From Escherichia coli (lineage in GTDB: Bacteria; Pseudomonadota; Gammaproteobacteria; Enterobacterales; Enterobacteriaceae): DNA of 64,000 bases. Positions 4,820 to 50,061 of the stretch are shown piece after piece. Location of the stretch: the NCBI RefSeq assembly GCF_003018115.1, contig NZ_CP027457.1; one strand, written 5' to 3'. The notes under the pieces were generated by a model. That model worked only from the letters and a program-made list of their open reading frames with translations. It had not been told where the DNA came from and searched no databases. How positions within the stretch are numbered: position 1 is the first letter of the stretch; each line of letters starts with the position of its first letter. The translations under genes and the position numbers were made by a program.

Positions 4820-5225
4820 GTCTTACCCCCAATAAGGGGATTTGCTCTATTTAATTAGGAATAAGGTCGATTACTGATAGAACAAATCCTGGCTACTGTG
4901 TTTAGTAATCAGATTTGTTCGTGACCGATATGCACGGGCAAAACGGCAGGAGGTTGTTAGCGCAGCCTCTTGCCACCCGCTTTCACGAAGGTCATGTGTA
5001 GAAGGCCGCAGCGTAACTATCACTAATGAATTCAGGACAGCCAGTGGCTACGGCTCAGTTTGGGTTGTGCTGTTGCTGGGCGGCGATGACGCCTGTACGC
5101 ATTTGGTGATCCGGTTCTGCTTCCGGTATTCGCTTAATTCAGCACAACGGAAAGAGCACTGACTAACCAGGCTCGCCGACTCTTCACGATTATCGACTCA
5201 ATGCTCTTACCTGCTGTGCAGATAT

Positions 5226-5283
5226 AAAAAATCCCGAAACCGTTATGCAGGCTCTAACTATTACCTGCGAACTGTTTCGGGAT
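5226..5283 (-). terminator. tR'-type terminator of the late leader (6S) RNA
   Basis: Minus strand reads CCCGAAACAGTTCGCAGGTAATAGTTAGAGCCTGCATAACGGTTTCGGGATTTTTT (hairpin plus T-run), matching the lambda tR' context downstream of Q. Confidence 0.7.
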
Positions 5284-5424
5284 TGCATTTTGCAGACCTC
5301 TCAGCCTGCGATGGTTGGAGTTCCAGACGATACGTCGAAGTGACCAACTAGGCGGAATCGGTAGTAAGCGTCGCCTCTTTTTATCTCACTACCACAACGA
5401 GCGAATTAACCCATCGTTGGGTCA

Positions 5425-5453
5425 AATTTACCCAACTTTATTCAATAAGTCAA
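5425..5453 (-). promoter_or_regulatory. Late promoter pR' (-35 TTGACT, 17-bp spacer, -10 TAAATT) with overlapping Q-utilisation (qut) region
   Basis: Minus strand TTGACTTATTGAATAAAGTTGGGTAAATT just downstream of the Q stop. Confidence 0.65.
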
Positions 5454-5495: not shown

Positions 5496-6119
5496 CTAAC
5501 GTGTGACCGCGTTAAAAATGTTGTCTGCGATTGACTCTTCCTTGTGGCATTGCACCACCAGAGCGTCATACAGCGGCTTAACAGTGCGTGACCAGGTGGG
5601 TTGGGTAAGGTTTGGGATTAGCATCGTCACAGCGCGATATGCGGCGCTTGCTGGCATCCTTGAATAACCGACGCCTTTGCATCTTCCGCACTCTTTCTCG
5701 ACAACTCTCCCCCACTGCTCTGTTTTTGCTATATCAACCGCACGGCCTGTACCGTGGCAATCTCTGCATCTTGCGCCCGGCGTCGCGGCACTACGGCAAT
5801 AATCCGCATAAGCGAATGTTGCGAGCACTTGCAGCACCTTTGCCTTAGTATTTCCTTCAAGCTTTGCCACACCACGGTATTTCCCCGATACCTTGTGTGC
5901 AAATTGCATCAGATAGTTGATAGCCTTTTGTTTGTCGTTCTGGCTGAGTTCGTGCTTACCACAGAATGCAGCCATGCCGAATCCGGCTTGTGATTGCGCC
6001 ATCCCCATAGCAGCCATCACATCAGTACCGGAAAGAGAGTCAGAAGCCGTGGCCCGTGGTGAGTCGCTCATCATCGGGCTTTTTGGCGAATGAAATTTAG
6101 CTACGCTTTCGAGTCTCAT
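5496..6119 (-). CDS. Q: Late-gene antiterminator Q (lambda Q-type, 207 aa)
   Basis: 207-aa ORF with zinc-binding motif CRDCHGTG...CGRCKG, positioned immediately upstream of pR' and the lysis genes. Confidence 0.85.
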   Translation of the reverse strand: MRLESVAKFHSPKSPMMSDSPRATASDSLSGTDVMAAMGMAQSQAGFGMAAFCGKHELSQNDKQKAINYLMQFAHKVSGKYRGVAKLEGNTKAKVLQVLATFAYADYCRSAATPGARCRDCHGTGRAVDIAKTEQWGRVVEKECGRCKGVGYSRMPASAAYRAVTMLIPNLTQPTWSRTVKPLYDALVVQCHKEESIADNIFNAVTR

Positions 6120-6304
6120 GGTCTTCCCCTCTTGCCCTGTTTGACCATCAGGACGCCGTTAACTATTACGTGACGCTCGCCTTTGCTGTCTCGGTTGTAC
6201 TTGAGCACTGTTCCTCTTGCGCAGGAAAGCATCCTCGCCACTTCGGTCTGATTGCCTCGTGTCTGGATAAGAAGCTCTGGTATCGTTTGAATTGTGGCGT
6301 TCAT
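6116..6304 (-). CDS. ninH: NinH-like protein
   Basis: 62-aa ORF with YGNQTEVARxLxCxRGTVxKY motif resembling lambda NinH; adjacent to Q. Confidence 0.6.
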   Translation of the reverse strand: MNATIQTIPELLIQTRGNQTEVARMLSCARGTVLKYNRDSKGERHVIVNGVLMVKQGKRGRP

Positions 6305-6663
6305 ACGTTCTCCAGTTCGGTGATTTTTATTCCAAGCCTTCCGCCTGGTACTTTCACACCACGAATTACGCGAATGTCATCGAATTGCTCGTCGTCTTCC
6401 GCAAATCCGGCGTGGATAAGGGAGTCGAGTAAACCCTTCAGGATGTTATCGAGGTCGCGGCGGCGGGAGTCTGGAACGTCTGCGATGACTTTGATGCGGA
6501 GTCGTGATTTGGTGAAAATATCTAACTTGAGTTGGCGGATGATTTGCTGAACGTCTTTTCGGTATTTCTGGCCTTTATCGCTGATGTAGTATTGGCTTCC
6601 CCGTCTTCGCCAGTAGGTATTCACCGACGGCGGGTATGGAAGCACAAACCGATATTCATTCAT
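6301..6663 (-). CDS. rusA: RusA-family Holliday junction resolvase
   Basis: 120-aa ORF with RusA signature (PPSVNTYWRRRG...RRRDLDN...GGRLGIKITE). Confidence 0.8.
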   Translation of the reverse strand: MNEYRFVLPYPPSVNTYWRRRGSQYYISDKGQKYRKDVQQIIRQLKLDIFTKSRLRIKVIADVPDSRRRDLDNILKGLLDSLIHAGFAEDDEQFDDIRVIRGVKVPGGRLGIKITELENV

Positions 6664-6950
6664 GACTTAACCTTCCCCTCCTTCAGCAATACCGCCTGCG
6701 TCCTGATCACGCCTTCGAGGTGGTAAAGTCTGGCGTCTTTGTTGTCGAGGTTATGGGTGCGTCGGTCGATTTCATCGTGACACGCGCTACAAGCCCATGC
6801 GCCGATCAGGTCGTCAGGCTTCATTCCCGTTCCGCAAATTCCAGCCATCCGGTAATGTGCCAGAACTGTAGTTTCAGGATTGCCATTGCATACGCCGTAA
6901 ATACGTACCTGGCATTCTCTGCCGCGTGCTTCTTTGCGTAGGTTAGCCAT
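6660..6950 (-). CDS. Cysteine-rich nin-region protein (DUF1364-like)
   Basis: 96-aa ORF with several Cys/His pairs, start/stop overlaps with neighbours. Confidence 0.5.
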   Translation of the reverse strand: MANLRKEARGRECQVRIYGVCNGNPETTVLAHYRMAGICGTGMKPDDLIGAWACSACHDEIDRRTHNLDNKDARLYHLEGVIRTQAVLLKEGKVKS

Positions 6951-7219
6951 TATGGTTCACTCCAGTAATTCTCAATTGCAGCAGCCATTCTCTGCATCCA
7001 CTCAGCCAGCTTTAACGCGGCTTCTCTTTCAGAACCACATTTAGGGAAATCCTTCATTTCCATGCTGGCCTTATATGTTCTGAATGCCAGGTCTCCGGTA
7101 ATAACCAGCTCCTGATCAAGCACCGAGCGTTTATTCCGGTGTTGAACGTAATAGACAGATTCAGTCCGCATTTCTTCTCTGTCTTTTTTGAAGGAAATAA
7201 GCTCAGAGAAATCACTCAT
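6950..7219 (-). CDS. Hypothetical nin-region protein (89 aa)
   Basis: ORF with ATGA start/stop coupling to neighbouring genes. Confidence 0.5.
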   Translation of the reverse strand: MSDFSELISFKKDREEMRTESVYYVQHRNKRSVLDQELVITGDLAFRTYKASMEMKDFPKCGSEREAALKLAEWMQRMAAAIENYWSEP

Positions 7220-7388
7220 CGTCTTCTTCCTCGTACATTGAGCTATTCGGATCGCTCATCAGTTCTGCGCAGCAGTGCTCACATACGTGAACTTCCAGCA
7301 CATGCAGCTTCTGACCGCAGTTAGCGCACGTTAAAGCCCGCTCGACGCTTTCTTTCTGGTATTGAAGGGATTGGGATGGGCTAAGCAT
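7212..7388 (-). CDS. ninF: NinF-like small zinc-ribbon protein (58 aa); absent from the supplied ORF track (below its length cut-off)
   Basis: Hand translation of minus strand: [58 protein letters not shown]; ATG overlaps upstream stop (TAATG) and stop overlaps downstream ATG. Confidence 0.55.
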   Translation of the reverse strand: MLSPSQSLQYQKESVERALTCANCGQKLHVLEVHVCEHCCAELMSDPNSSMYEEEDDE

Positions 7389-7753
7389 TATTGGATTCTC
7401 TGCATCATGAGAAAGACAATCATGGCGGCGCGGAGGGGATTTTCATGTATAACTCGCTTAGATTTACAGTAGGCCACACCGCGTGCACCCCACTCGTCTT
7501 CATCGAGATTGATAATGCTAATCCTGTATTTTTCAATAATCGGCCATGCGTCTGCTGGGTTTGCGCATGGGTTAAAGGATCCGCGCTCAACTTCTACTTC
7601 AACTGCGTCTCCGTTTACAATGTCTCCCTCAAATGAGACAAACACCATATCGCCATTCTCACCTTCTTTGTAATCCGGTGATCCGTTATGAATGGCTTCG
7701 AATACCGCCACGTTAATTTCAAAATCACTTAACTGTGAATAATCCATTGTCAT
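7388..7753 (-). CDS. Hypothetical nin-region protein (about 121 aa from internal Met; ORF extends to 7789)
   Basis: ORF 7388-7789; likely start MTMDYSQ at 7753 overlapping the ninE stop. Confidence 0.5.
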
Positions 7754-7926
7754 TTCCTCGCACGATGTCTTAGCCACCGGATATCCCACAGGTGAGCCGT
7801 GTAGTTGAAGGTTTTTACGTCAGATTCTTTTGGGATTGGCTTGCGTTTATTTCTGGAGCGTTTCGTTGGAAGGTATTTGCAGTTTTCGCAGATGATGTCG
7901 GTGATACTTCGTCGCTGTCGTCTCAT
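7750..7926 (-). CDS. ninE: NinE-like protein (58 aa)
   Basis: [51 protein letters not shown]... starting at ATG overlapping the ninB stop; recognised as lambda NinE-like. Confidence 0.5.
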
Positions 7927-8333
7927 TCGTACCTCCTGTCGGTAAATCTGACACCCTGACCAATAGCCCACGCTGTTGTGTACTCAATCAGACTTGCCAT
8001 ACGCTTTACACTCATCTGCGCGCTGCTTTCGCGGATGTTGACGTATTCGCCTTCAAGCCCGGGCAAAACATCAGCTTCCTGCTTTGTTGCCACTGCATGA
8101 CCGCTGATCAACAAAACCTTCCATTGTTCTGGTTTTAACCATTTATCGCGCCACTGAACTTGCCTGGCGATATCTGCGACCATCGCGTGAAATTTTGCGT
8201 TCTGGTCAAGATTTCGCTTGTAGTCAGTAATGCGGATGGTGACTGGCTTGTCTTTATCGAGTGGTGTTGCGAGGATGGCATTTATTGCGGCTTGCTGTTG
8301 TTGCTTAGTTCGGAGGAAGATTGTTTGCTTCAC
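7923..8333 (-). CDS. ninB: NinB (Orf-family recombination mediator)
   Basis: 136-aa ORF in the nin region, recognised by similarity to NinB/Orf. Confidence 0.7.
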
Positions 8334-8344
8334 TGAATACTCCT

Positions 8345-8536
8345 TTATTTTTTATGCCTGTAACCCCATTCTTCCAGCAACCTTGCGGCGTACCACCCAA
8401 GAAACAAAGGAAAGAACATTACAATGAGATATTCCCCGCCACGGTCAATGTTCGAAATTGACCAGATTACGATGTAACCAGTGCAGGACAGGAATATTAC
8501 AAACCCCAAAAAGCTACTTCGTCGACTCATGCTCAC
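8345..8536 (-). CDS. Small hydrophobic protein (63 aa)
   Basis: ORF with two predicted transmembrane stretches; stop overlaps next gene. Confidence 0.4.
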   Translation of the reverse strand: MSMSRRSSFLGFVIFLSCTGYIVIWSISNIDRGGEYLIVMFFPLFLGWYAARLLEEWGYRHKK

Positions 8537-8853
8537 TCCTTCACTTTGATTCCAGCAGCGCGGATGTTTTCCTCATAAGCATCCATTGCATCACCGAAGC
8601 CATTGGAATAATCAACAGTAAACCCTTTGGCTAAGGCTTCTCTGCTGTCGATAAACTTTGGCGCGGTTATTTCAATAGCTGCTCGCGATGCCTGCCACGT
8701 TTGCCAGTGGCCTTGAACATCGTCCATCACGTATTGACCACCAATATTACCGCTGCCAATTTCATGGTGATTTTCAGGGTAACGGATAAGGTCTGAAGAT
8801 TCGCCCCCACGTCGTAACCAACTCTCTTCAAACTGCTTTCTTGATTCGTCCAT
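8533..8853 (-). CDS. Hypothetical phage protein (106 aa)
   Basis: ORF in operon context between helicase and ninB. Confidence 0.5.
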   Translation of the reverse strand: MDESRKQFEESWLRRGGESSDLIRYPENHHEIGSGNIGGQYVMDDVQGHWQTWQASRAAIEITAPKFIDSREALAKGFTVDYSNGFGDAMDAYEENIRAAGIKVKE

Positions 8854-8870
8854 CGATACTTATCCTCAGT

Positions 8871-9077
8871 TCAACTCACAAAACGCCACGCCATTTTTGC
8901 AACAGCGACAGGCGCAACACCGATAATCACCCACATGAGAGTGCTACCGAAAAGCACACCCACCATGTCTTTACCTTCACCTACCAACCGGATAAAACTG
9001 CTGGCAATCACAATGAACGTCACCACCATCCACGACGCACCGAGAAGCCTCAATGCAGAGAAAATTAACTCAGCCAC
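8871..9077 (-). CDS. Small membrane protein (68 aa)
   Basis: Hydrophobic ORF just downstream of the helicase gene. Confidence 0.4.
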   Translation of the reverse strand: MAELIFSALRLLGASWMVVTFIVIASSFIRLVGEGKDMVGVLFGSTLMWVIIGVAPVAVAKMAWRFVS

Positions 9078-9149
9078 GATTTACTCTCCCCCAAATAAAA
9101 AGGCCTGCGATTACCAGCAGGCCTGTTACAAGCTCAGTGATGTAGATGG

Positions 9150-10526
9150 TCATACGTCAGCCCCTTGTGCATATCGTCTGCCACGCGCAGCAGGTGCATT
9201 TGATGCTGTGCAAATCTGTCTGGCTTCATCCTGGTCACATGCAACAAAGTGTCCGTTACAGAACCGCTGGTAAACCGTACCAAGCGAGCCAAAACGGTTT
9301 TTCGTCACAATGATTTCAGCAAATGGTGCGGCGCTACTGTTCTCGTCATATACCGCTTCCCGATAGAGCATGATGATTGAGTCTGCGTCCTGCTCAATGC
9401 TTCCTGAATCACGCAAATCTGCGTTTGTCGGGCGTTTGTTTGGTCGCTTCTCAACATCGCGCGAAAGCTGACTCAGGGAGATAACAGGCGTTTTCAGGTC
9501 TTTCGCCATCGCCTTCAGGCTTCCGGAGATGTGAGCAATTGCAAGGTCGTTGCGGTCTGCTTTCGGCTTCTCAATCAGGCCAAGATAATCCGCCATGATG
9601 AGTGACAGGTTTGGATTTTCCTGTTTGTGCCGTTCTGCGATTGAGCGTATTTCTTCGACCGATAAACGCGAGGCATCGACTACCCATACATCCAAATCTG
9701 CGAGCTGACTCATGCCGTTAGCAACACGCGCCCAGCCTTCGTCATCCATCGATGCAGGATTTCGCAGTACGCTAACCGACATCCTCCCGGCGTTGGCAAT
9801 GCTTCGCTCTGCAATCTGCAATGCGCTCATTTCCATTGAGAAAATCAATACCCCGCGCCGGACGTCAGAACCAGGAATAACGCGGCTTGCAACGCCTTCG
9901 GCAATCTTCAGCGCCAGTTCGGTTTTCCCCATACCAGGACGAGCGGCGATAATCACCAGGTCTTCCGCGTTCATCCCTCCGGTGATAGCGTCAAGTTCTT
10001 CGATTCCGGTCTTCAGGGTATCTGACTCTTCTCCGTTCCTCAGACGCCTGTCAAGCGTGTCAGTGTAGTCGGTGATGATTTCCCCTAACCGTACCGGTTT
10101 AACCTCGTCACGGGGCTTTCTGATGGCTGAAAGACGCTTTACAAGCTCATCCATCGCCTGACTAGATGCGTCGATGGTTCCGCTCTGAATTGGTTCACGC
10201 ATTTCGTCCATGATTTCCAGCACCAGACGGCGGTGATAGTTATCCGCGACCATTCCGGCATATCCCTTCAGGTTTGCGGCACTCGGGCAGTTTTTGCTGG
10301 TCATCAGGATTGACGTGAAATGCTCCTCTCCGCACGCCTCGGCAACCATCAGCGCGTCGATTAGGTTTCTGTTTCGCGCCTGCTTGCGGATAACCTCGAA
10401 GGCTTTCCGGTAGAGCGGAATTGAAAACGCTTCCGGCTCAAGCGTTGCCAGAACGTCACTGGCGGTTGGAGTTAATCCACCAATCAGCAGGCCACCGATA
10501 ACGCTCGCTTCGATATCCTGTCTCAT
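9150..10526 (-). CDS. Replicative DNA helicase, DnaB family (P22 gene 12-like; replaces lambda P)
   Basis: 458-aa ORF with Walker A (GMGKT) and DnaB-type motifs; start overlaps O stop. Confidence 0.85.
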
Positions 10527-13684: not shown

Positions 13685-13990
13685 ATGACAGTAGTCATTA
13701 CATATCTGGCTGACGATAACGCCAGAAATCGCCGCAGAGCACGCAGACAGGCTCAACGTGAACAGGCAATGCAAGAGCAGCGACTGGCGCGAAAAATTGC
13801 GCTAAAGCTCTCTGGTTGCGTCAGGGCAGACAAAGCAGCATCACTCGGAAGCCTTCGCTGCCAGAAGGCAGAAGAAGTCGAGCGTAAACAGAACCGTATT
13901 TACTACCGCAAGCCACGCAGTGAAATGGGTGTGACATGCTCAGGCCGCCAGAAGCAACGCGGAAAATCAATTCCAGCTTATTACGATTGA
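13685..13990 (+). CDS. N: N-type antitermination protein (arginine-rich motif)
   Basis: 101-aa ORF with N-terminal ARM (NARNRRRARRQAQREQ); first gene after nutL; central region resembles phage-21-type N as recalled. Confidence 0.6.
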   Translation: MTVVITYLADDNARNRRRARRQAQREQAMQEQRLARKIALKLSGCVRADKAASLGSLRCQKAEEVERKQNRIYYRKPRSEMGVTCSGRQKQRGKSIPAYYD

Positions 13991-20801: not shown

Positions 20802-21020
20802 ATGTACTTGACACTTCAGGAGTGGAACGCACGCCAGCGACGCCCAAGAAGCCTTGAAACAGTTCGTCGATGGGTGCGCGAATGCAGGATATTCCCACCA
20901 CCGGTTAAGGATGGAAGAGAGTATCTGTTCCACGAATCAGCGGTAAAGGTTGACTTAAATCGACCAGTAACAGGTAGCCTTTTGAAGAGGATCAGAAATG
21001 GGAAGAAGGCGAAGTCATGA
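20802..21020 (+). CDS. xis: Excisionase (lambda Xis-type)
   Basis: 72-aa ORF MYLTLQEWNARQRRPRSLETVRRWVRECRIFPPPVKDGREYLFHESAVKV..., recognised as lambda Xis; overlaps int start. Confidence 0.85.
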   Translation: MYLTLQEWNARQRRPRSLETVRRWVRECRIFPPPVKDGREYLFHESAVKVDLNRPVTGSLLKRIRNGKKAKS

Positions 21021-22068
21021 GCGCCGGGATTTACCCCCTAACCTTTATATAAGAAACAATGGATATTACTGCTACAGGGACCCAAGGACGGGTAAAGAGT
21101 TCGGATTAGGCAGAGACAGGAGGATAGCAATCACTGAAGCTATACAGGCCAACATTGAGTTATTTTCAGGACACAAACACAAGCCTCTGACAGCGAGAAT
21201 CAACAGTGATAATTCTGTTACGTTACATTCATGGCTTGATCGCTACGAAAAAATCCTCGCCAGCAGAGGAATCAAGCAGAAGACACTCATAAATTACATG
21301 AGCAAAATTAAAGCAATAAGGAGGGGGCTGCCTGATGTTCCACTTGAAGACATCACCACAAAAGAAATTGCGGCAATGCTCAATGGATACATAGACGAGG
21401 GCAAGGCGGCATCAGCCAAGTTAATCAGATCAACACTGAGCGATGCATTCCGAGAGGCTATAGCTGAAGGCCATATAACAACAAACCCGGTCGCTGCTAC
21501 TCGCGCAGCAAAATCAGAGGTAAGGAGATCAAGGCTTACGGCTGACGAATACCTGAAAATTTATCAAGCAGCAGAATCATCACCATGTTGGTTAAGACTT
21601 GCAATGGAACTGGCTGTTGTTACCGGACAGCGAGTTGGTGATTTATGCGAAATGAAGTGGTCTGATATCGTAGATGGATATCTTTATGTCGAGCAAAGCA
21701 AAACAGGCGTAAAAATTGCCATCCCAACAGCATTGCATGTTGATGCTCTCGGAATATCAATGAAGGAAACACTTGATAAATGCAAAGAGATTCTTGGCGG
21801 AGAAACCATAATTGCATCTACTCGTCGTGAACCGCTTTCATCCGGCACAGTATCAAGGTATTTTATGCGCGCACGAAAAGCATCAGGTCTTTCCTTCGAA
21901 GGGGATCCGCCTACCTTTCACGAGTTGCGCAGTTTGTCTGCAAGACTCTATGAGAAGCAGATAAGCGATAAGTTTGCTCAACATCTTCTCGGGCATAAGT
22001 CGGACACCATGGCATCACAGTATCGTGATGACAGAGGCAGGGAGTGGGACAAAATTGAAATCAAATAA
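20998..22068 (+). CDS. int: Tyrosine integrase (lambda Int-type, 356 aa)
   Basis: 356-aa ORF MGRRRSHERRDLPPNLYIRNNGYYCYRDPRTGKEFGLGRDRR..., recognised as lambda Int; transcribed toward the att junction. Confidence 0.9.
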   Translation: MGRRRSHERRDLPPNLYIRNNGYYCYRDPRTGKEFGLGRDRRIAITEAIQANIELFSGHKHKPLTARINSDNSVTLHSWLDRYEKILASRGIKQKTLINYMSKIKAIRRGLPDVPLEDITTKEIAAMLNGYIDEGKAASAKLIRSTLSDAFREAIAEGHITTNPVAATRAAKSEVRRSRLTADEYLKIYQAAESSPCWLRLAMELAVVTGQRVGDLCEMKWSDIVDGYLYVEQSKTGVKIAIPTALHVDALGISMKETLDKCKEILGGETIIASTRREPLSSGTVSRYFMRARKASGLSFEGDPPTFHELRSLSARLYEKQISDKFAQHLLGHKSDTMASQYRDDRGREWDKIEIK

Positions 22069-22141
22069 TGATTTTATTTTGACTGATAGTGACCTGTTCG
22101 TTGCAACAAATTGATAAGCAATGCTTTTTTATAATGCCAAC

Positions 22142-22156
22142 TTAGTATAAAAAAGC
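22142..22156. other. attL core (lambda 15-bp common core, complement of GCTTTTTTATACTAA) at the prophage-host junction
   Basis: TTAGTATAAAAAAGC preceded by lambda P'-arm-like sequence and followed by host AGGCTTCA. Confidence 0.8.
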
Positions 22157-22202
22157 AGGCTTCAACGGATTCATTTTTCTATTTCATAGCCCGGAGCAAC
22201 CT

Positions 22203-23486
22203 GTGAACACATTTTCAGTTTCCCGTCTGGCGCTGGCATTGGCTTTTGGCGTGACGCTGACCGCCTGTAGCTCAACACCACCCGATCAACGTCCTTCTGA
22301 TCAAACTGCGCCTGGTACCTCTTCTCGCCCGATTCTGTCGGCAAAAGAAGCGCAGAATTTCGATGCTCAACACTATTATGCATCCCTGACACCAGGTGCT
22401 GCAGCGTGGAATCCGTCCCCGATAACCCTGCCTGCGCAACCTGACTTTGTTGTCGGCCCGGCGGGTACTCAAGGTGTAACGCATACCACGATTCAGGCGG
22501 CGGTAGATGCGGCAATTATCAAGCGCACCAACAAGCGCCAGTATATTGCCGTGATGCCTGGTGAGTATCAGGGAACGGTGTATGTCCCTGCTGCTCCAGG
22601 TGGAATTACTCTGTACGGTACAGGTGAAAAACCGATTGATGTGAAGATTGGGCTTTCCCTTGATGGGGGCATGAGCCCTGCCGACTGGCGTCACGACGTC
22701 AACCCGCGCGGCAAATATATGCCAGGTAAACCAGCGTGGTATATGTACGATAGCTGCCAGCGCAAACGCAGCGACAGTATCGGTGTTCTGTGTTCTGCGG
22801 TCTTCTGGTCACAAAACAATGGCCTGCAACTGCAAAATCTGACCATCGAAAACACGCTGGGCGATAGCGTAGATGCAGGTAACCATCCGGCGGTGGCACT
22901 GCGTACTGACGGTGACCAGGTACAGATTAACAACGTTAACATTCTCGGTCGTCAGAACACCTTCTTTGTCACCAACAGCGGTGTGCAGAACCGTCTGGAA
23001 ACGAATCGTCAGCCGCGTACGCTGGTGACCAACAGCTACATTGAAGGGGATGTGGATATCGTTTCTGGTCGCGGCGCAGTGGTGTTCGATAACACCGAAT
23101 TCCGCGTGGTGAACTCACGTACTCAGCAAGAAGCGTATGTGTTTGCACCGGCTACGCTGTCCAACATCTATTACGGTTTCCTCGCCGTAAACAGCCGTTT
23201 CAATGCTTCCGGTGATGGCGTGGCGCAACTGGGCCGCTCGCTGGATGTTGATGCCAATACCAACGGTCAGGTGGTGATCCGTGATAGCGCCATCAACGAA
23301 GGTTTTAACACGGTTAAACCGTGGGGCGATGCGGTGATCTCTAATCGTCCGTTTGCGGGTAATACCGGCAGCGTTGACGATAGCGACGAAATACAGCGCA
23401 ATCTGAATGACACTAACTACAACCGCATGTGGGAATACAATAACCGCGGCGTGGGTAGCAAAGTGGTTGCAGAGGCGAAGAAGTAA
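22203..23486 (+). CDS. ybhC: Pectinesterase-like outer-membrane lipoprotein YbhC
   Basis: 427-aa ORF with lipoprotein signal (LTACSS); position adjacent to attB-lambda. Confidence 0.9.
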   Translation: MNTFSVSRLALALAFGVTLTACSSTPPDQRPSDQTAPGTSSRPILSAKEAQNFDAQHYYASLTPGAAAWNPSPITLPAQPDFVVGPAGTQGVTHTTIQAAVDAAIIKRTNKRQYIAVMPGEYQGTVYVPAAPGGITLYGTGEKPIDVKIGLSLDGGMSPADWRHDVNPRGKYMPGKPAWYMYDSCQRKRSDSIGVLCSAVFWSQNNGLQLQNLTIENTLGDSVDAGNHPAVALRTDGDQVQINNVNILGRQNTFFVTNSGVQNRLETNRQPRTLVTNSYIEGDVDIVSGRGAVVFDNTEFRVVNSRTQQEAYVFAPATLSNIYYGFLAVNSRFNASGDGVAQLGRSLDVDANTNGQVVIRDSAINEGFNTVKPWGDAVISNRPFAGNTGSVDDSDEIQRNLNDTNYNRMWEYNNRGVGSKVVAEAKK

Positions 23487-43767: not shown

Positions 43768-44082
43768 GTCTGTTCCAGTGTTGCCATACTTATCTTAGTG
43801 AATGCAATACTTCCAATCTATATCTTCCGTCAGAATGTGTAAACGGGGTTTTACACTATGAACGGATTAATCCTGGAATTAGCAAGAAAAACGCCAGATT
43901 GTCGCGAAAAACGAGATCTCTCCTACAATTTCTAACTGTAACTCCTTTGTTTGTTAATTATTTCAAGATTCTCTGCTGCGTTTCATAACCTGGCTGAAAT
44001 CTTAAACCAATGCCTTATATTCACCTGCAAATGCACTGTTGGAAGAGGTTATCCGACATAACGACCATAACAGGAGCATCCT

Positions 44083-47588: not shown

Positions 47589-47717
47589 ACATTGGTGGGT
47601 CGTGCAGGATGACTCGCTTCGCTCGCCCTTCGGGCCGTCGCCGCGAGCGGCTCCGTTGTTTCGCTGCGCTCAACTCAAACCTGCTGCAGGTTCGAATCTT
47701 TGAGTATCGCAGATAGC

Positions 47718-47744
47718 AAAAAAGCGCCTTTAGGGCGCTTTTTT
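47718..47744 (-). terminator. Intrinsic terminator following lysQ (end of the tRNA operon)
   Basis: Minus strand AAAAAAGCGCCCTAAAGGCGCTTTTTT hairpin immediately 3' of the last tRNA. Confidence 0.7.
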
Positions 47745-47748
47745 ACAT

Positions 47749-47824
47749 TGGTGGGTCGTGCAGGATTCGAACCTGCGACCAATTGATTAAAAGTCAACTG
47801 CTCTACCAACTGAGCTAACGACCC
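47749..47824 (-). tRNA. lysQ: tRNA-Lys (UUU)
   Basis: 76-nt sequence (minus strand GGGTCGTTAGCTCAGTTGGTAGAGCAGTTGACTTTTAATCAATTGGTCGCAGGTTCGAATCCTGCACGACCCACCA). Confidence 0.9.
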
Positions 47825-47857
47825 CTTGCGGGATTATGATGCTTTAATCATTCAGGA

Positions 47858-47933
47858 TGGTGGGTCGTGCAGGATTCGAACCTGCGACCAATTGATTAAA
47901 AGTCAACTGCTCTACCAACTGAGCTAACGACCC
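47858..47933 (-). tRNA. lysZ: tRNA-Lys (UUU)
   Basis: Identical 76-nt tRNA-Lys sequence. Confidence 0.9.
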
Positions 47934-48079
47934 ATACGGGTGTTACCTGAAAGATTTTTACTCGGGGCCAATCTTTAAGATTGGTGGGTCGTGCAGGATG
48001 ACTCGCTTCGCTCGCCCTTCGGGCCGTTGCTGGCGCAACGTTATCCTTCACGCTTAACATCTGAGTTTGATGTTAAAAC

Positions 48080-48155
48080 TGGTGGGTCGTGCAGGATTCG
48101 AACCTGCGACCAATTGATTAAAAGTCAACTGCTCTACCAACTGAGCTAACGACCC
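48080..48155 (-). tRNA. lysY: tRNA-Lys (UUU)
   Basis: Identical 76-nt tRNA-Lys sequence. Confidence 0.9.
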
Positions 48156-48158
48156 GAG

Positions 48159-48234
48159 TGGTGGGTGATGACGGGATCGAACCGCCGACCCCCTCCTTGT
48201 AAGGGAGGTGCTCTCCCAGCTGAGCTAATCACCC
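48159..48234 (-). tRNA. valZ: tRNA-Val (UAC)
   Basis: 76-nt sequence (minus strand GGGTGATTAGCTCAGCTGGGAGAGCACCTCCCTTACAAGGAGGGGGTCGGCGGTTCGATCCCGTCATCACCCACCA). Confidence 0.9.
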
Positions 48235-48285
48235 GATACTGCGCTGGATACTACAAACTACTTCCACCGAACCCACCGTAATTAG

Positions 48286-48361
48286 TGGTGGGTCGTGCAG
48301 GATTCGAACCTGCGACCAATTGATTAAAAGTCAACTGCTCTACCAACTGAGCTAACGACCC
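48286..48361 (-). tRNA. lysW: tRNA-Lys (UUU)
   Basis: Identical 76-nt tRNA-Lys sequence. Confidence 0.9.
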
Positions 48362-48363
48362 GG

Positions 48364-48439
48364 TGGTGGGTGATGACGGGATCGAACCGCCGACCCCCTC
48401 CTTGTAAGGGAGGTGCTCTCCCAGCTGAGCTAATCACCC
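48364..48439 (-). tRNA. valT: tRNA-Val (UAC)
   Basis: Identical 76-nt tRNA-Val sequence. Confidence 0.9.
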
Positions 48440-48474
48440 GATACTACGCTGGATACTACAACTAACTAGGTTAG

Positions 48475-48550
48475 TGGTGGGTCGTGCAGGATTCGAACCT
48501 GCGACCAATTGATTAAAAGTCAACTGCTCTACCAACTGAGCTAACGACCC
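48475..48550 (-). tRNA. lysT: tRNA-Lys (UUU), first gene of the operon
   Basis: Identical 76-nt tRNA-Lys sequence. Confidence 0.9.
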
Positions 48551-48714: not shown

Positions 48715-49506
48715 TTACATCGCGTTCAGACGTTTTTGTGCCTGTTTAGCGCCATCAGTACCAGGGTATTTACTGATAACCTGCTGGTATACGGCTTTCG
48801 CTTTTGCGGTGTCACCTTTGTCCTGCATGATGACGCCGACTTTAAACATCGCATCTGCAGCCTTTGGTGACTTCGGATAGTTTTTCACTACCGAAGCAAA
48901 ATAGTACGCCGCATCATCTTTTTTACCCTTGTTGTAGTTTAACTGACCCAGCCAATAATTGGCGTTTGGCAGGTAAGTTGAATCAGGGTAATTTTTGATG
49001 AAATTCTGAAATGCCACCATTGCGTCATCCTGGCGGGATTTATCCTGCACCAGCGCAATAGCTGCATTGTAATCCGTGTTTGCATCACCGCTTTTCACCG
49101 GCGCGCCAGCATTCGCAGTACCAGCATCAGCTGTCGGCGTCGTTGATGCCGCCGCACCGCTTTGATCACCGCTGGTTGATTGCGCCGCTGCACCACCGCT
49201 GCTGAGGCTGTCGATCTGCAACAGGATCTGCTTTTGCCGCTCCACGACCTGATTCAGTTGATACTGATTTTCCTGAATCTGACCACGCAGGGAATCAATA
49301 TCGGATTGATTATCAGAGAGTTGTTGCTGGAGTTGGGTTAAAAGCTGGCTGTGAGCATTAGAAATACGCTCAAGTTGAGTGACGCGGTCTTCGACCGAGC
49401 CTGAGCCGACACTACTGATTGGTGCCTGAGCAAAAGCGGCCCAGGGGGCCGCTATACCAACCAGTAACGACAGACTCAATAGTTGATGTCTGAAGTTACT
49501 GCTCAT
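48715..49506 (-). CDS. cpoB: Cell-division coordinator CpoB (YbgF), TPR protein
   Basis: 263-aa ORF with signal peptide, coiled coil and TPR repeats; last gene of tol-pal. Confidence 0.9.
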   Translation of the reverse strand: MSSNFRHQLLSLSLLVGIAAPWAAFAQAPISSVGSGSVEDRVTQLERISNAHSQLLTQLQQQLSDNQSDIDSLRGQIQENQYQLNQVVERQKQILLQIDSLSSGGAAAQSTSGDQSGAAASTTPTADAGTANAGAPVKSGDANTDYNAAIALVQDKSRQDDAMVAFQNFIKNYPDSTYLPNANYWLGQLNYNKGKKDDAAYYFASVVKNYPKSPKAADAMFKVGVIMQDKGDTAKAKAVYQQVISKYPGTDGAKQAQKRLNAM

Positions 49507-49515
49507 GCAATTCTC

Positions 49516-50061
<546 letters not shown>

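Follow-up and report, generated by a model that had tools for sequence, protein, structure and literature searches.

Gene content of the locus

The interval 6116-8333 of the 64-kb stretch of DNA that we analysed (the window) is a standard lambda/P22-type prophage nin region of E. coli, in which the genes NinB, NinE, NinX, NinF, an 89-aa protein (phrog_1258), YbcO/DUF1364, RusA and NinH follow each other in this order and lead into the late-gene antiterminator Q. Every gene of the block, Q included, lies on the minus strand, as judged from the ORFs and from the junctions read directly from the sequence, and NinB, NinE, NinX, NinF, YbcO, RusA, NinH and Q match their Pfam families above the curated cut-offs. 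A sequence-only reading of the same DNA, which gave no strand, had called this block a nin region, and this is borne out by the Pfam matches and by the position of the block, with a DnaB-type helicase and a lambda-type tR2 terminator on one side and a PR' promoter on the other. In the direction of transcription, the features are:

9150-10526, minus strand: DnaB-type replicative helicase (ORF; annotated as replicative helicase in related records)
9070-9153, minus strand: ninA-like ORF, 27 aa (23/23 aligned residues identical to P22 NinA)
9101-9124, minus strand: tR2-type intrinsic terminator, AGGCCTGC-loop-GCAGGCCT followed by a T-run (terminator scan)
8871-9077, minus strand: orf68, predicted small membrane protein, GTG start (phrog_1165)
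8533-8853, minus strand: orf106 (phrog_343)
8345-8536, minus strand: orf63, small hydrophobic protein, GTG start
7923-8333, minus strand: NinB/Orf recombination mediator, 136 aa, GTG start (PF05772, E = 4.6e-53)
7750-7926, minus strand: NinE, 58 aa (PF05322, E = 7e-44)
7388-7747, minus strand: NinX, 119 aa (PF10765, E = 4e-19)
7212-7388, minus strand: NinF, 58 aa (PF05810, 47.3 bits against a cut-off of 27.5)
6950-7219, minus strand: orf89, 89 aa (phrog_1258)
6660-6950, minus strand: YbcO/DUF1364 putative HNH-type nuclease, 96 aa (PF07102, E = 3.2e-44; phrog_131, HNH endonuclease)
6301-6663, minus strand: RusA Holliday-junction resolvase, 120 aa (PF05866, E = 1.1e-16; annotated in related records)
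6116-6304, minus strand: NinH, 62 aa (PF06322, E = 2e-24)
5496-6119, minus strand: Q late-gene antiterminator, 207 aa (PF03589, E = 1.3e-57)
5425-5453, minus strand: PR'-type late promoter, TTGACT-17-TAAATT, downstream of Q (promoter scan)

The block sits between the replication genes and Q on the same strand as cro-cII-O, with Cro, CII, O and the helicase upstream, and terminase and lysis genes downstream of Q. We are thus highly confident in assigning the segment 5496-9153 (minus strand) to a P22/lambda-type mosaic prophage, of whose early-right (PR) operon it forms the distal part. The prophage adjoins ybhC, and its left end is cut by the window. Its genes NinB, NinE, NinX, NinF, YbcO, RusA and NinH, together with the ninA-like ORF, are members of a nin gene pool that has been put at 30-50 genes, of which a phage carries about 10 (PMC5630979).

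The helicase, which closes the series of replication genes ahead of the nin region, occupies the position that P has in lambda and gene 12 in P22. Its stop codon overlaps the start of the ninA-like ORF (ATGA), which heads the interlinked chain, is too short for any ORF track, and has its frame passing through the tR2 hairpin; the NinA initiation site is also known to adjoin tR2 in lambda (PMC4824070). The hairpin, which marks the upstream end of the nin region, is identical to the tR2 in the ren-ninB intergenic region of lambda, and its homologues are annotated as terminators in mEp235 and P22. The terminator scan found tR2 alone, with no intrinsic terminator on the coding strand inside 6116-8333, and an Rfam scan of the whole window gave no match in the prophage part. 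Downstream of tR2, the start of orf68 overlaps the ninA-like stop by 8 nt and that of orf63 overlaps the orf106 stop (GTGA). While orf106 matches mEp235 and phiv205-1 genes annotated there as similar to Sf6 gene 48, orf63 matched no family in Pfam or PHROG; phiv205-1 has an annotated hypothetical protein at its position. Hence, of the claim that the chain spans 6116-8333, the overlaps inside the interval stand, while the boundary does not, since the chain reaches upstream to the helicase, the ninA-like ORF and tR2 (~9153).

Two start codons or frames within the block deserve mention. The ORF track listed NinE only as a GTG-extended 73-aa frame, and NinX has an alternative start at 7753 that yields 121 aa; the short NinX start is the one used by PGAP in E. 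coli G3 and the long one is that of P22. No Pfam family matched orf89; mEp235 and phiv205-1 carry this gene too, under the erroneous name 'portal protein'. At the distal end, the TTGACT and TAAATT hexamers of PR' recur in the intergenic region between Q and orf64 of lambda, and a homologue of the promoter is annotated in mEp235. Q is the last gene of the chain and the sole essential one. Deletions of nin remove tR2; in lambda they lead to N-independence, and nin is dispensable there for plaque formation. None of the lambda nin genes is essential, ninF being no exception, and blocks inside nin are polar on Q (PMC10695390).

Comparison with known phages

The annotations of phiv205-1, mEp235 and E. 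coli G3 show almost the same arrangement, and matches to the region were found in 433 phage records and in 2342 of the 5426 complete E. coli genomes. We compared it with the nin regions of lambda and P22, as the sequence-only reading had proposed, and both turned out to share genes and the interlinked geometry with it. Lambda ninR (ren-ninA...ninI-Q) likewise follows the replication genes and tR2 and leads into Q, with the same ATGA-type overlaps, and its proteins are 99% (Q), 95% (NinE), 84-85% (NinF) and 56% (NinH) identical to those of the present prophage, whereas its NinB is only 37% identical. Lambda carries NinC, NinD, NinG/Rap and NinI, which the present prophage lacks; conversely, NinX, orf89, YbcO, RusA and the three small ORFs that separate tR2 from NinB are not shared with lambda. 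In P22 (ninA-B-D-E-X-F-G-Y-H-Z-23), both the ninA ORF over the terminator and the order NinE-NinX-NinF are the same, with identities of 98% for NinE and for NinF, 97% for gene 23/Q and 60% for NinH, but only 48% for NinX and 37% for NinB; moreover, P22 has NinD, NinG, NinY and NinZ where the present prophage has orf89, YbcO and RusA.

The distal half is closest to the mEp235/HK620/HK97-type phages and phiv205-1, in which the DNA of orf89-YbcO-RusA-NinH-Q shows 96-97% identity and the junctions are the same, the direct overlap of NinH with Q among them; however, mEp235 lacks NinX and phiv205-1 has a different NinX core. The DLP12-type nin region (ybcN-ninE-ybcO-rusA-ylcG-quuD) shares the YbcO-RusA pair and tight overlaps (-1, -8, -4, -4), and the DLP12-type prophage of E. 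coli F9792 occupies the same ybhC-side insertion site, but its Q is of the QuuD type, it lacks NinF, NinX and NinH, and its ybcO is only ~71% identical in DNA.

The best query coverage by any single record was at most 92% in the phage and complete E. coli collections; therefore, the exact combination of cassettes is a new mosaic of known parts. The joints of this mosaic lie near gene junctions: homology to lambda stops at 6129, and that to E. coli G3 is interrupted at 6951-7210, which nearly coincides with orf89 (6950-7219). The combination NinB-NinE-NinX-NinF-orf89-YbcO-RusA-NinH without NinC, NinD, NinG and NinI is one of many known cassette combinations, and both the content of the block and its overlap pattern are already known, so that the initial observation is correct but ordinary.

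Junction geometry and proposed translational coupling

We measured the gap at each junction from the upstream stop to the downstream start, with negative values denoting overlaps. The gaps are -4 for NinB-NinE (ATGA), +2 for NinE-NinX with the PGAP start or -4 (ATGA) with the P22-type start, -1 for NinX-NinF (TAATG), -8 for NinF-orf89, -1 for orf89-YbcO (TAATG), and -4 (ATGA) for each of YbcO-RusA, RusA-NinH and NinH-Q. Almost every gene had been said to start within a few bases of the preceding stop, and this holds throughout, since all but one of the eight junctions from NinB to Q are overlaps, the exception being either a 2-nt gap or an ATGA. Such overlapping stops and starts are those expected of a coupled operon and of the interlinked genes of a nin region, in agreement with lambda, where the nin gaps are -4, -4, -34, -4, -11, -4, -23 and -4, and with P22, where every junction overlaps; the DLP12-like prophage of E. 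coli F9792 is likewise tight. Overlaps are commoner in the chain (7/8) than among the host genes of the gal-mod-ybh part, where the E. coli F9792 annotation has them in 2 of 13 same-strand neighbour pairs (Fisher p = 0.002). The 1982 paper by Kröger and Hobom, 'A chain of interlinked genes', reportedly gave the first description of overlapping stop and start codons in lambda nin. This geometry has been termed general for lambdoid phages (PMC8022706).

Most of the genes have a recognisable Shine-Dalgarno (SD) sequence. The pairing energies of the genes from NinB to Q other than NinF range from -5.3 to -11.8 kcal/mol; SD sequences are recognisable at NinB (strong, -8.2 kcal/mol), NinE, RusA and Q (-8.2 to -11.8 kcal/mol) and moderate at NinX, orf89, YbcO and NinH. 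NinF has none, its value of -2.9 kcal/mol being the background median.

From this geometry we infer translational coupling along the chain. Transcription from PR via cro, cII, O and the helicase would meet tR2, cross the nin genes and reach Q, and a ribosome that ends one gene would re-initiate at the next, as the overlaps suggest. Re-initiation would keep the mRNA translated continuously as far as Q and would permit the expression of genes with a weak SD or none, NinF being the clearest case; it might also protect the transcript against Rho-dependent polarity. With no SD and a start codon that has one base in common with the NinX stop, NinF may be made solely through termination-reinitiation. 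On the other hand, most genes of the chain have their own SD, and therefore independent initiation could explain much of their translation.

The latter point leads to the strongest rival, in which the overlaps are the product of genome compaction or scars of cassette exchange, and each gene initiates at its own SD without any coupling. The SD sequences, recognisable at four starts and moderate at four others, are what it would lead one to expect, and as the mosaic joints lie near gene junctions, the junction sequences may have been retained as linkers for recombination. Nevertheless, we regard it as unlikely: NinF lacks an SD, yet it is under purifying selection (see below) and its start overlaps the NinX stop by one base; lambda, P22, DLP12-type prophages and the present phage all keep the overlap geometry despite their differing genes; and overlaps are far commoner here than among host neighbours.

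Missing nin genes and the NinH-Q junction

The lambda phosphatase gene ninI had been reported as absent, with NinH running directly into Q. Accordingly, tblastn searches of the whole 64-kb window with lambda NinI, NinC, NinD, NinG, P and Ren gave no match at E <= 0.01, and NinH and Q overlap at an ATGA. Since no NinI was found anywhere in the window, a relocated phosphatase is excluded, and since NinH and Q overlap, there is no remnant of ninI between them. The direct NinH-Q junction is present in 37 phage records at >= 80% coverage, among them the viable isolated phages HK140, mEpX2, mEp235, ECP1 and HZ41. RusA sits where lambda and P22 have NinG/Rap, and it has been described as a functional replacement for NinG (PMC8022706). 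NinH has been described as a Fis-like HTH DNA-binding protein (PMC7166090).

It is conceivable that ninI was lost through decay of a defective prophage and that its absence is no part of the normal architecture, seeing that the window cuts the prophage and that NinC, NinD, NinG and NinI are all missing. We consider this very improbable and reject it, as the NinH-Q junction is intact and found in viable phages, no frameshifted or truncated nin ORFs were seen, and NinG is functionally replaced by RusA.

The 58-aa gene is ninF

The sequence-only reading had drawn attention to a 58-aa gene at 7212-7388 that was missing from the ORF track through a length cut-off. Indeed, with the default cut-off of 60 aa the ORF lister leaves it out, and the ORF appears when the minimum is lowered to 30 aa. 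This ORF is ninF, which encodes a conserved Cys4 protein with an acidic tail: it is 100% identical to RefSeq WP_000950962.1 ('protein NinF'), 98% identical to P22 NinF (58 aa in both) and 84-85% identical to lambda NinF, passes the PF05810 threshold, and matches phrog_672 over its full length (E = 1.2e-37). It has 108 homologous clusters, and almost all of the named ones are called NinF. Its place in the gene order, downstream of NinE or NinX with the junction-resolvase module following, is that seen in P22, lambda, mEp235 and E. coli G3. The pN/pS ratio is ~0.15-0.28 (from small counts) against lambda, P22, mEp235 and phiv205-1, and there is no nonsynonymous difference from E. coli G3. As a side observation, the gene is 'unlisted' merely through the ORF-length cut-off, and it has long been annotated in phages (lambda, P22, mEp235 and phiv205-1) and in RefSeq E. 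coli genomes.

That the ORF is a chance open frame has a negligible probability, however short it is and despite its missing SD and low-confidence structural model, and is effectively refuted by its conservation, since it scores above the Pfam NinF gathering cut-off, matches the PHROG family and the 108 clusters, retains its cysteines and acidic tail, has low pN/pS in all four comparisons with nonsynonymous change, and is annotated in those phages and in RefSeq E. coli.

The alignments show the conserved core TCANCGQKLHVLEVHVC..CCAELM followed by the acidic tail, with C21, C24, C36 and C40 conserved and C40 invariant across the family. The protein had been described as a CxxC...CxxHCC protein, and while the four conserved cysteines are real, the motif reads C-A-N-C ... 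C-E-H-C-C, in which H38 is variable and C39 is replaced by Ser in some members. The ligand spacing C21-x2-C24 ... C36-x2-C39-C40 matches the two-knuckle (CxxC ... CxxC) arrangement of a zinc ribbon. NinF is probably a zinc-binding protein, and the motif points to a possible zinc-ribbon fold. The AF2 model (27-sequence alignment; mean pLDDT 65, pTM 0.26) contains no beta-hairpin knuckles and no confident strands, the Pfam zinc-ribbon models all scored below their cut-offs on NinF, and sequence and profile searches of the PDB returned nothing significant, the best hit being the zinc-binding ribosomal protein S14 type Z (E = 0.18-1.6).

Instead of being a stand-alone factor, NinF may bind zinc and work as a partner of the recombination proteins encoded on either side of it (NinB/Orf, YbcO and RusA), and ribosome occupancy of the ninA-like ORF across tR2 could tune termination. 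The full proposal, namely, that NinF is made solely by termination-reinitiation, that it is such a partner and that the ninA-like ORF tunes tR2, is speculative, and we think it rather doubtful as a whole.

Implications

The importance of the locus is small beyond annotation quality, and nothing in it makes the functions of the small nin genes newly testable. It does demonstrate how real and conserved phage genes drop out of view when ORFs below 60 aa are discarded, here NinF (58 aa) and the ninA-like ORF (27 aa), and it adds another case of lambdoid phages exchanging cassettes at gene junctions or no more than ~10 nt away from them.

Setting and gene content of the nin chain

The nin locus belongs to a prophage of mosaic P22/lambda type, whose distal early-right operon it forms. 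Upstream of the nin region, the accessory gene block between the replication genes and the Q antiterminator of lambdoid phages, genes for Cro, CII, an O-type initiator and a DnaB-type helicase lie on the same strand; downstream of Q there is a PR'-type (late) promoter (TTGACT-17-TAAATT), and further downstream the lysis genes and P22-type small and large terminase genes. By listing ORFs down to 30 aa, as the sequence-only reading had suggested, and by reading the sequence directly, we recovered the chain from NinB to Q. All genes named in that reading (6116-8333) are on the minus strand, and only orf89 (the unnamed small ORFs are numbered by length) lacks a named Pfam family.

Features of the nin region and its flanks (P, Pfam family above the curated cut-off)
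9101-9124, minus: tR2 terminator hairpin, identical to lambda tR2
9070-9153, minus: ninA-like ORF, 27 aa, first 23 residues identical to P22 NinA (23/23)
7923-8333, minus: NinB, 136 aa, GTG start, P
7750-7926, minus: NinE, 58 aa, P
7388-7747 (alternative start 7753), minus: NinX, 119 aa, P
7212-7388, minus: NinF, 58 aa, PF05810
6950-7219, minus: orf89, 89 aa, phrog_1258
6660-6950, minus: YbcO/DUF1364, 96 aa, P
6301-6663, minus: RusA, 120 aa, P
6116-6304, minus: NinH, 62 aa, P
5496-6119, minus: Q, 207 aa, P
5193-5384, minus: lambda orf-64 homologue, 95% identical, just past PR', placed as in lambda

The host genes flanking the prophage are E. coli ybhC-ybhJ-ybhI-ybhH, which places it on the att-lambda side of gal, adjoining ybhC (window ~20998-23486). 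A 356-aa ORF at 20998-22068 matches in position and size the integrase annotated in E. coli F9792. That strain matches the host flank at 100% identity, but its prophage at this site is a different lambdoid one, carrying a DLP12-like nin region, QuuD, an ompC-like moron and emrE. A 101-aa ORF (13685-13990, plus strand) with an arginine-rich N-terminus (NARNRRRARRQAQREQ) is placed like an N-type antiterminator and has no Pfam match. Seven clustered tRNA genes, of which five are Lys-UUU and two are Val-UAC, lie in the host intervals 47593-48550 and 49477-49615 (both minus), together with two RtT RNA elements and the CpoB/ybgF RNA thermometer.

Overlapping junctions and the absence of ninI

The stop-to-start gaps from NinB to Q are, in order, -4, +2, -1, -8, -1, -4, -4 and -4, the +2 between NinE and NinX becoming -4 with the P22-type NinX start. 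Overlaps (ATGA, TAATG or ATGAGTGA) thus occur at 7 or 8 of the 8 junctions, versus 2 of 13 same-strand neighbour pairs in the control, the gal-mod-ybh host genes of this region in their F9792 annotation (Fisher p = 0.002), which bears out the earlier claim that almost every gene begins within a few bases of the preceding stop; the pattern is real and not due to chance. Comparison with the lambda and P22 nin regions, likewise suggested by the sequence-only reading, showed overlapping junctions in both: the lambda series, NinB to Q, runs -4, -4, -34, -4, -11, -4, -23 and -4, and every P22 junction from gene 12 to gene 23 overlaps. Those of the DLP12-type prophage of F9792 are -1, -8, -4 and -4.

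The ninI phosphatase gene had been read as missing, with ninH running straight into Q; indeed, tblastn with lambda queries returned no match to NinI, nor to NinC, NinD, NinG, P or Ren, in the whole 64-kb window, and the NinH stop and Q start overlap as ATGA. This direct arrangement is common: a 161-nt junction probe was covered to at least 80% in 37 phage records, among them HK140, mEpX2, mEp235, ECP1 and HZ41, and the overlap is likewise annotated in phiv205-1, mEp235 and E. coli G3. RusA occupies the slot that holds NinG/Rap in lambda. The nin pool comprises 30-50 genes, about ten per phage (PMC5630979).

The 58-aa ORF is NinF

NinF has been annotated ever since the lambda sequence. The 58-aa ORF had been called unlisted on account of its length, and it is indeed absent because the ORF lister's default cut-off is 60 aa. 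It is NinF: it matches PF05810 (47.3 bits, cut-off 27.5) and phrog_672 (E = 1.2e-37), is 98% identical to P22 NinF and 84% to lambda NinF, and is identical to WP_000950962.1, "protein NinF", of E. coli G3. A search of 5.8 billion proteins gave 108 clusters of homologues; named clusters are nearly all called NinF, and, with one exception, every named hit comes from Escherichia or Salmonella. In codon comparisons, pN/pS is ~0.15-0.28 against lambda, mEp235, phiv205-1 and P22, and the G3 copy differs by two synonymous changes only; the counts are small, but they fit a coding sequence under purifying selection.

The protein is cysteine-rich as described, but the motif CxxC...CxxHCC does not hold as written: the residues are C21-A-N-C24 ... 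C36-E-H-C39-C40. Since C40 is invariant in the family alignment, whereas several members have Ser in place of C39 and H38 is freely variable, the ligands are likely C21, C24, C36 and C40. The zinc-ribbon fold is putative; the AF2 model is of low confidence (pLDDT 65, pTM 0.26), and PDB searches gave no significant match, only an insignificant resemblance to zinc-binding ribosomal protein S14. Lambda NinF can be dispensed with when polarity on Q is relieved (PMC10695390) and has low-confidence two-hybrid partners only (PMC3224144).

The chain extends upstream of NinB

The nin genes placed within 6116-8333 are there, but the region starts upstream of 8333, the chain reaching the helicase and the ninA-like ORF (9070-9153). 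The helicase stop overlaps the start of this ORF (ATGA), its frame runs straight through the tR2 hairpin, and it ends in an 8-nt overlap with orf68, which starts with GTG; the gaps that come next are +17 before orf106, -4 before orf63 (a GTGA overlap) and +11 before NinB. After NinF, the ninA-like ORF is the second gene invisible to an ordinary ORF track. Ribosome occupancy of this ORF might modulate termination at tR2 (compare PMC4824070). The three small ORFs between tR2 and NinB (8345-9077, minus) have no counterpart there in lambda; orf68 is phrog_1165, orf106 is phrog_343 and orf63 has no family, and both orf68 and orf63 resemble small membrane proteins.

Mosaicism and a proposed re-initiation of translation along the chain up to Q

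In DNA-level mapping, the ends of homology blocks fall close to gene junctions. Lambda similarity spans 7753-7919 in NinE and 7217-7354 in NinF, and ends at 6129, no more than ~10 nt from the ATGA that joins NinH to Q (6116-6129); in the lambda RefSeq record, a misc_recomb feature marks the NinI/Q junction of lambda itself (lambda 43884-43885). Both fit junction sequences acting as recombination linkers. Similarity to E. coli G3 breaks at 6951-7210, almost exactly orf89, which acts like a cassette exchanged nearly at its start and stop, G3 having a 72-aa gene there; the phiv205-1 copy of orf89 is mis-annotated as 'portal protein'. Since coverage of the interval by any one record, from the phage or the complete E. 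coli collection, is at most 92%, the combination is a new shuffle of known cassettes, as is normal for lambdoid phages. The finding itself is correct but already known.

Our analysis establishes how the genes are joined, what they are and which regulatory sequences accompany them. As for mechanism, a ribosome ending at each TGA or TAA would re-initiate at the start codon, ATG or GTG, that overlaps this stop. In the main alternative, the overlaps reflect compaction or serve as recombination linkers, and initiation is independent for each gene, which is possible for those preceded by good Shine-Dalgarno sequences. Anti-Shine-Dalgarno pairing is -5.3 to -11.8 kcal/mol for the genes from NinB to Q other than NinF. 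However, the 18 nt upstream of NinF pair at -2.9 kcal/mol, the background median, which argues against independent initiation and is the best internal support for re-initiation; pairing of orf63, upstream of NinB, is weak as well (-3.3). Within the block, Q alone is essential, and CRISPRi roadblocks in lambda nin genes are lethal only via polarity on Q (PMC10695390). Protection from Rho is described as established in lambda (Cheng et al. 1995, as cited in PMC8022706). With unbroken translation, ribosomes would also cover the long PR transcript all the way to Q.
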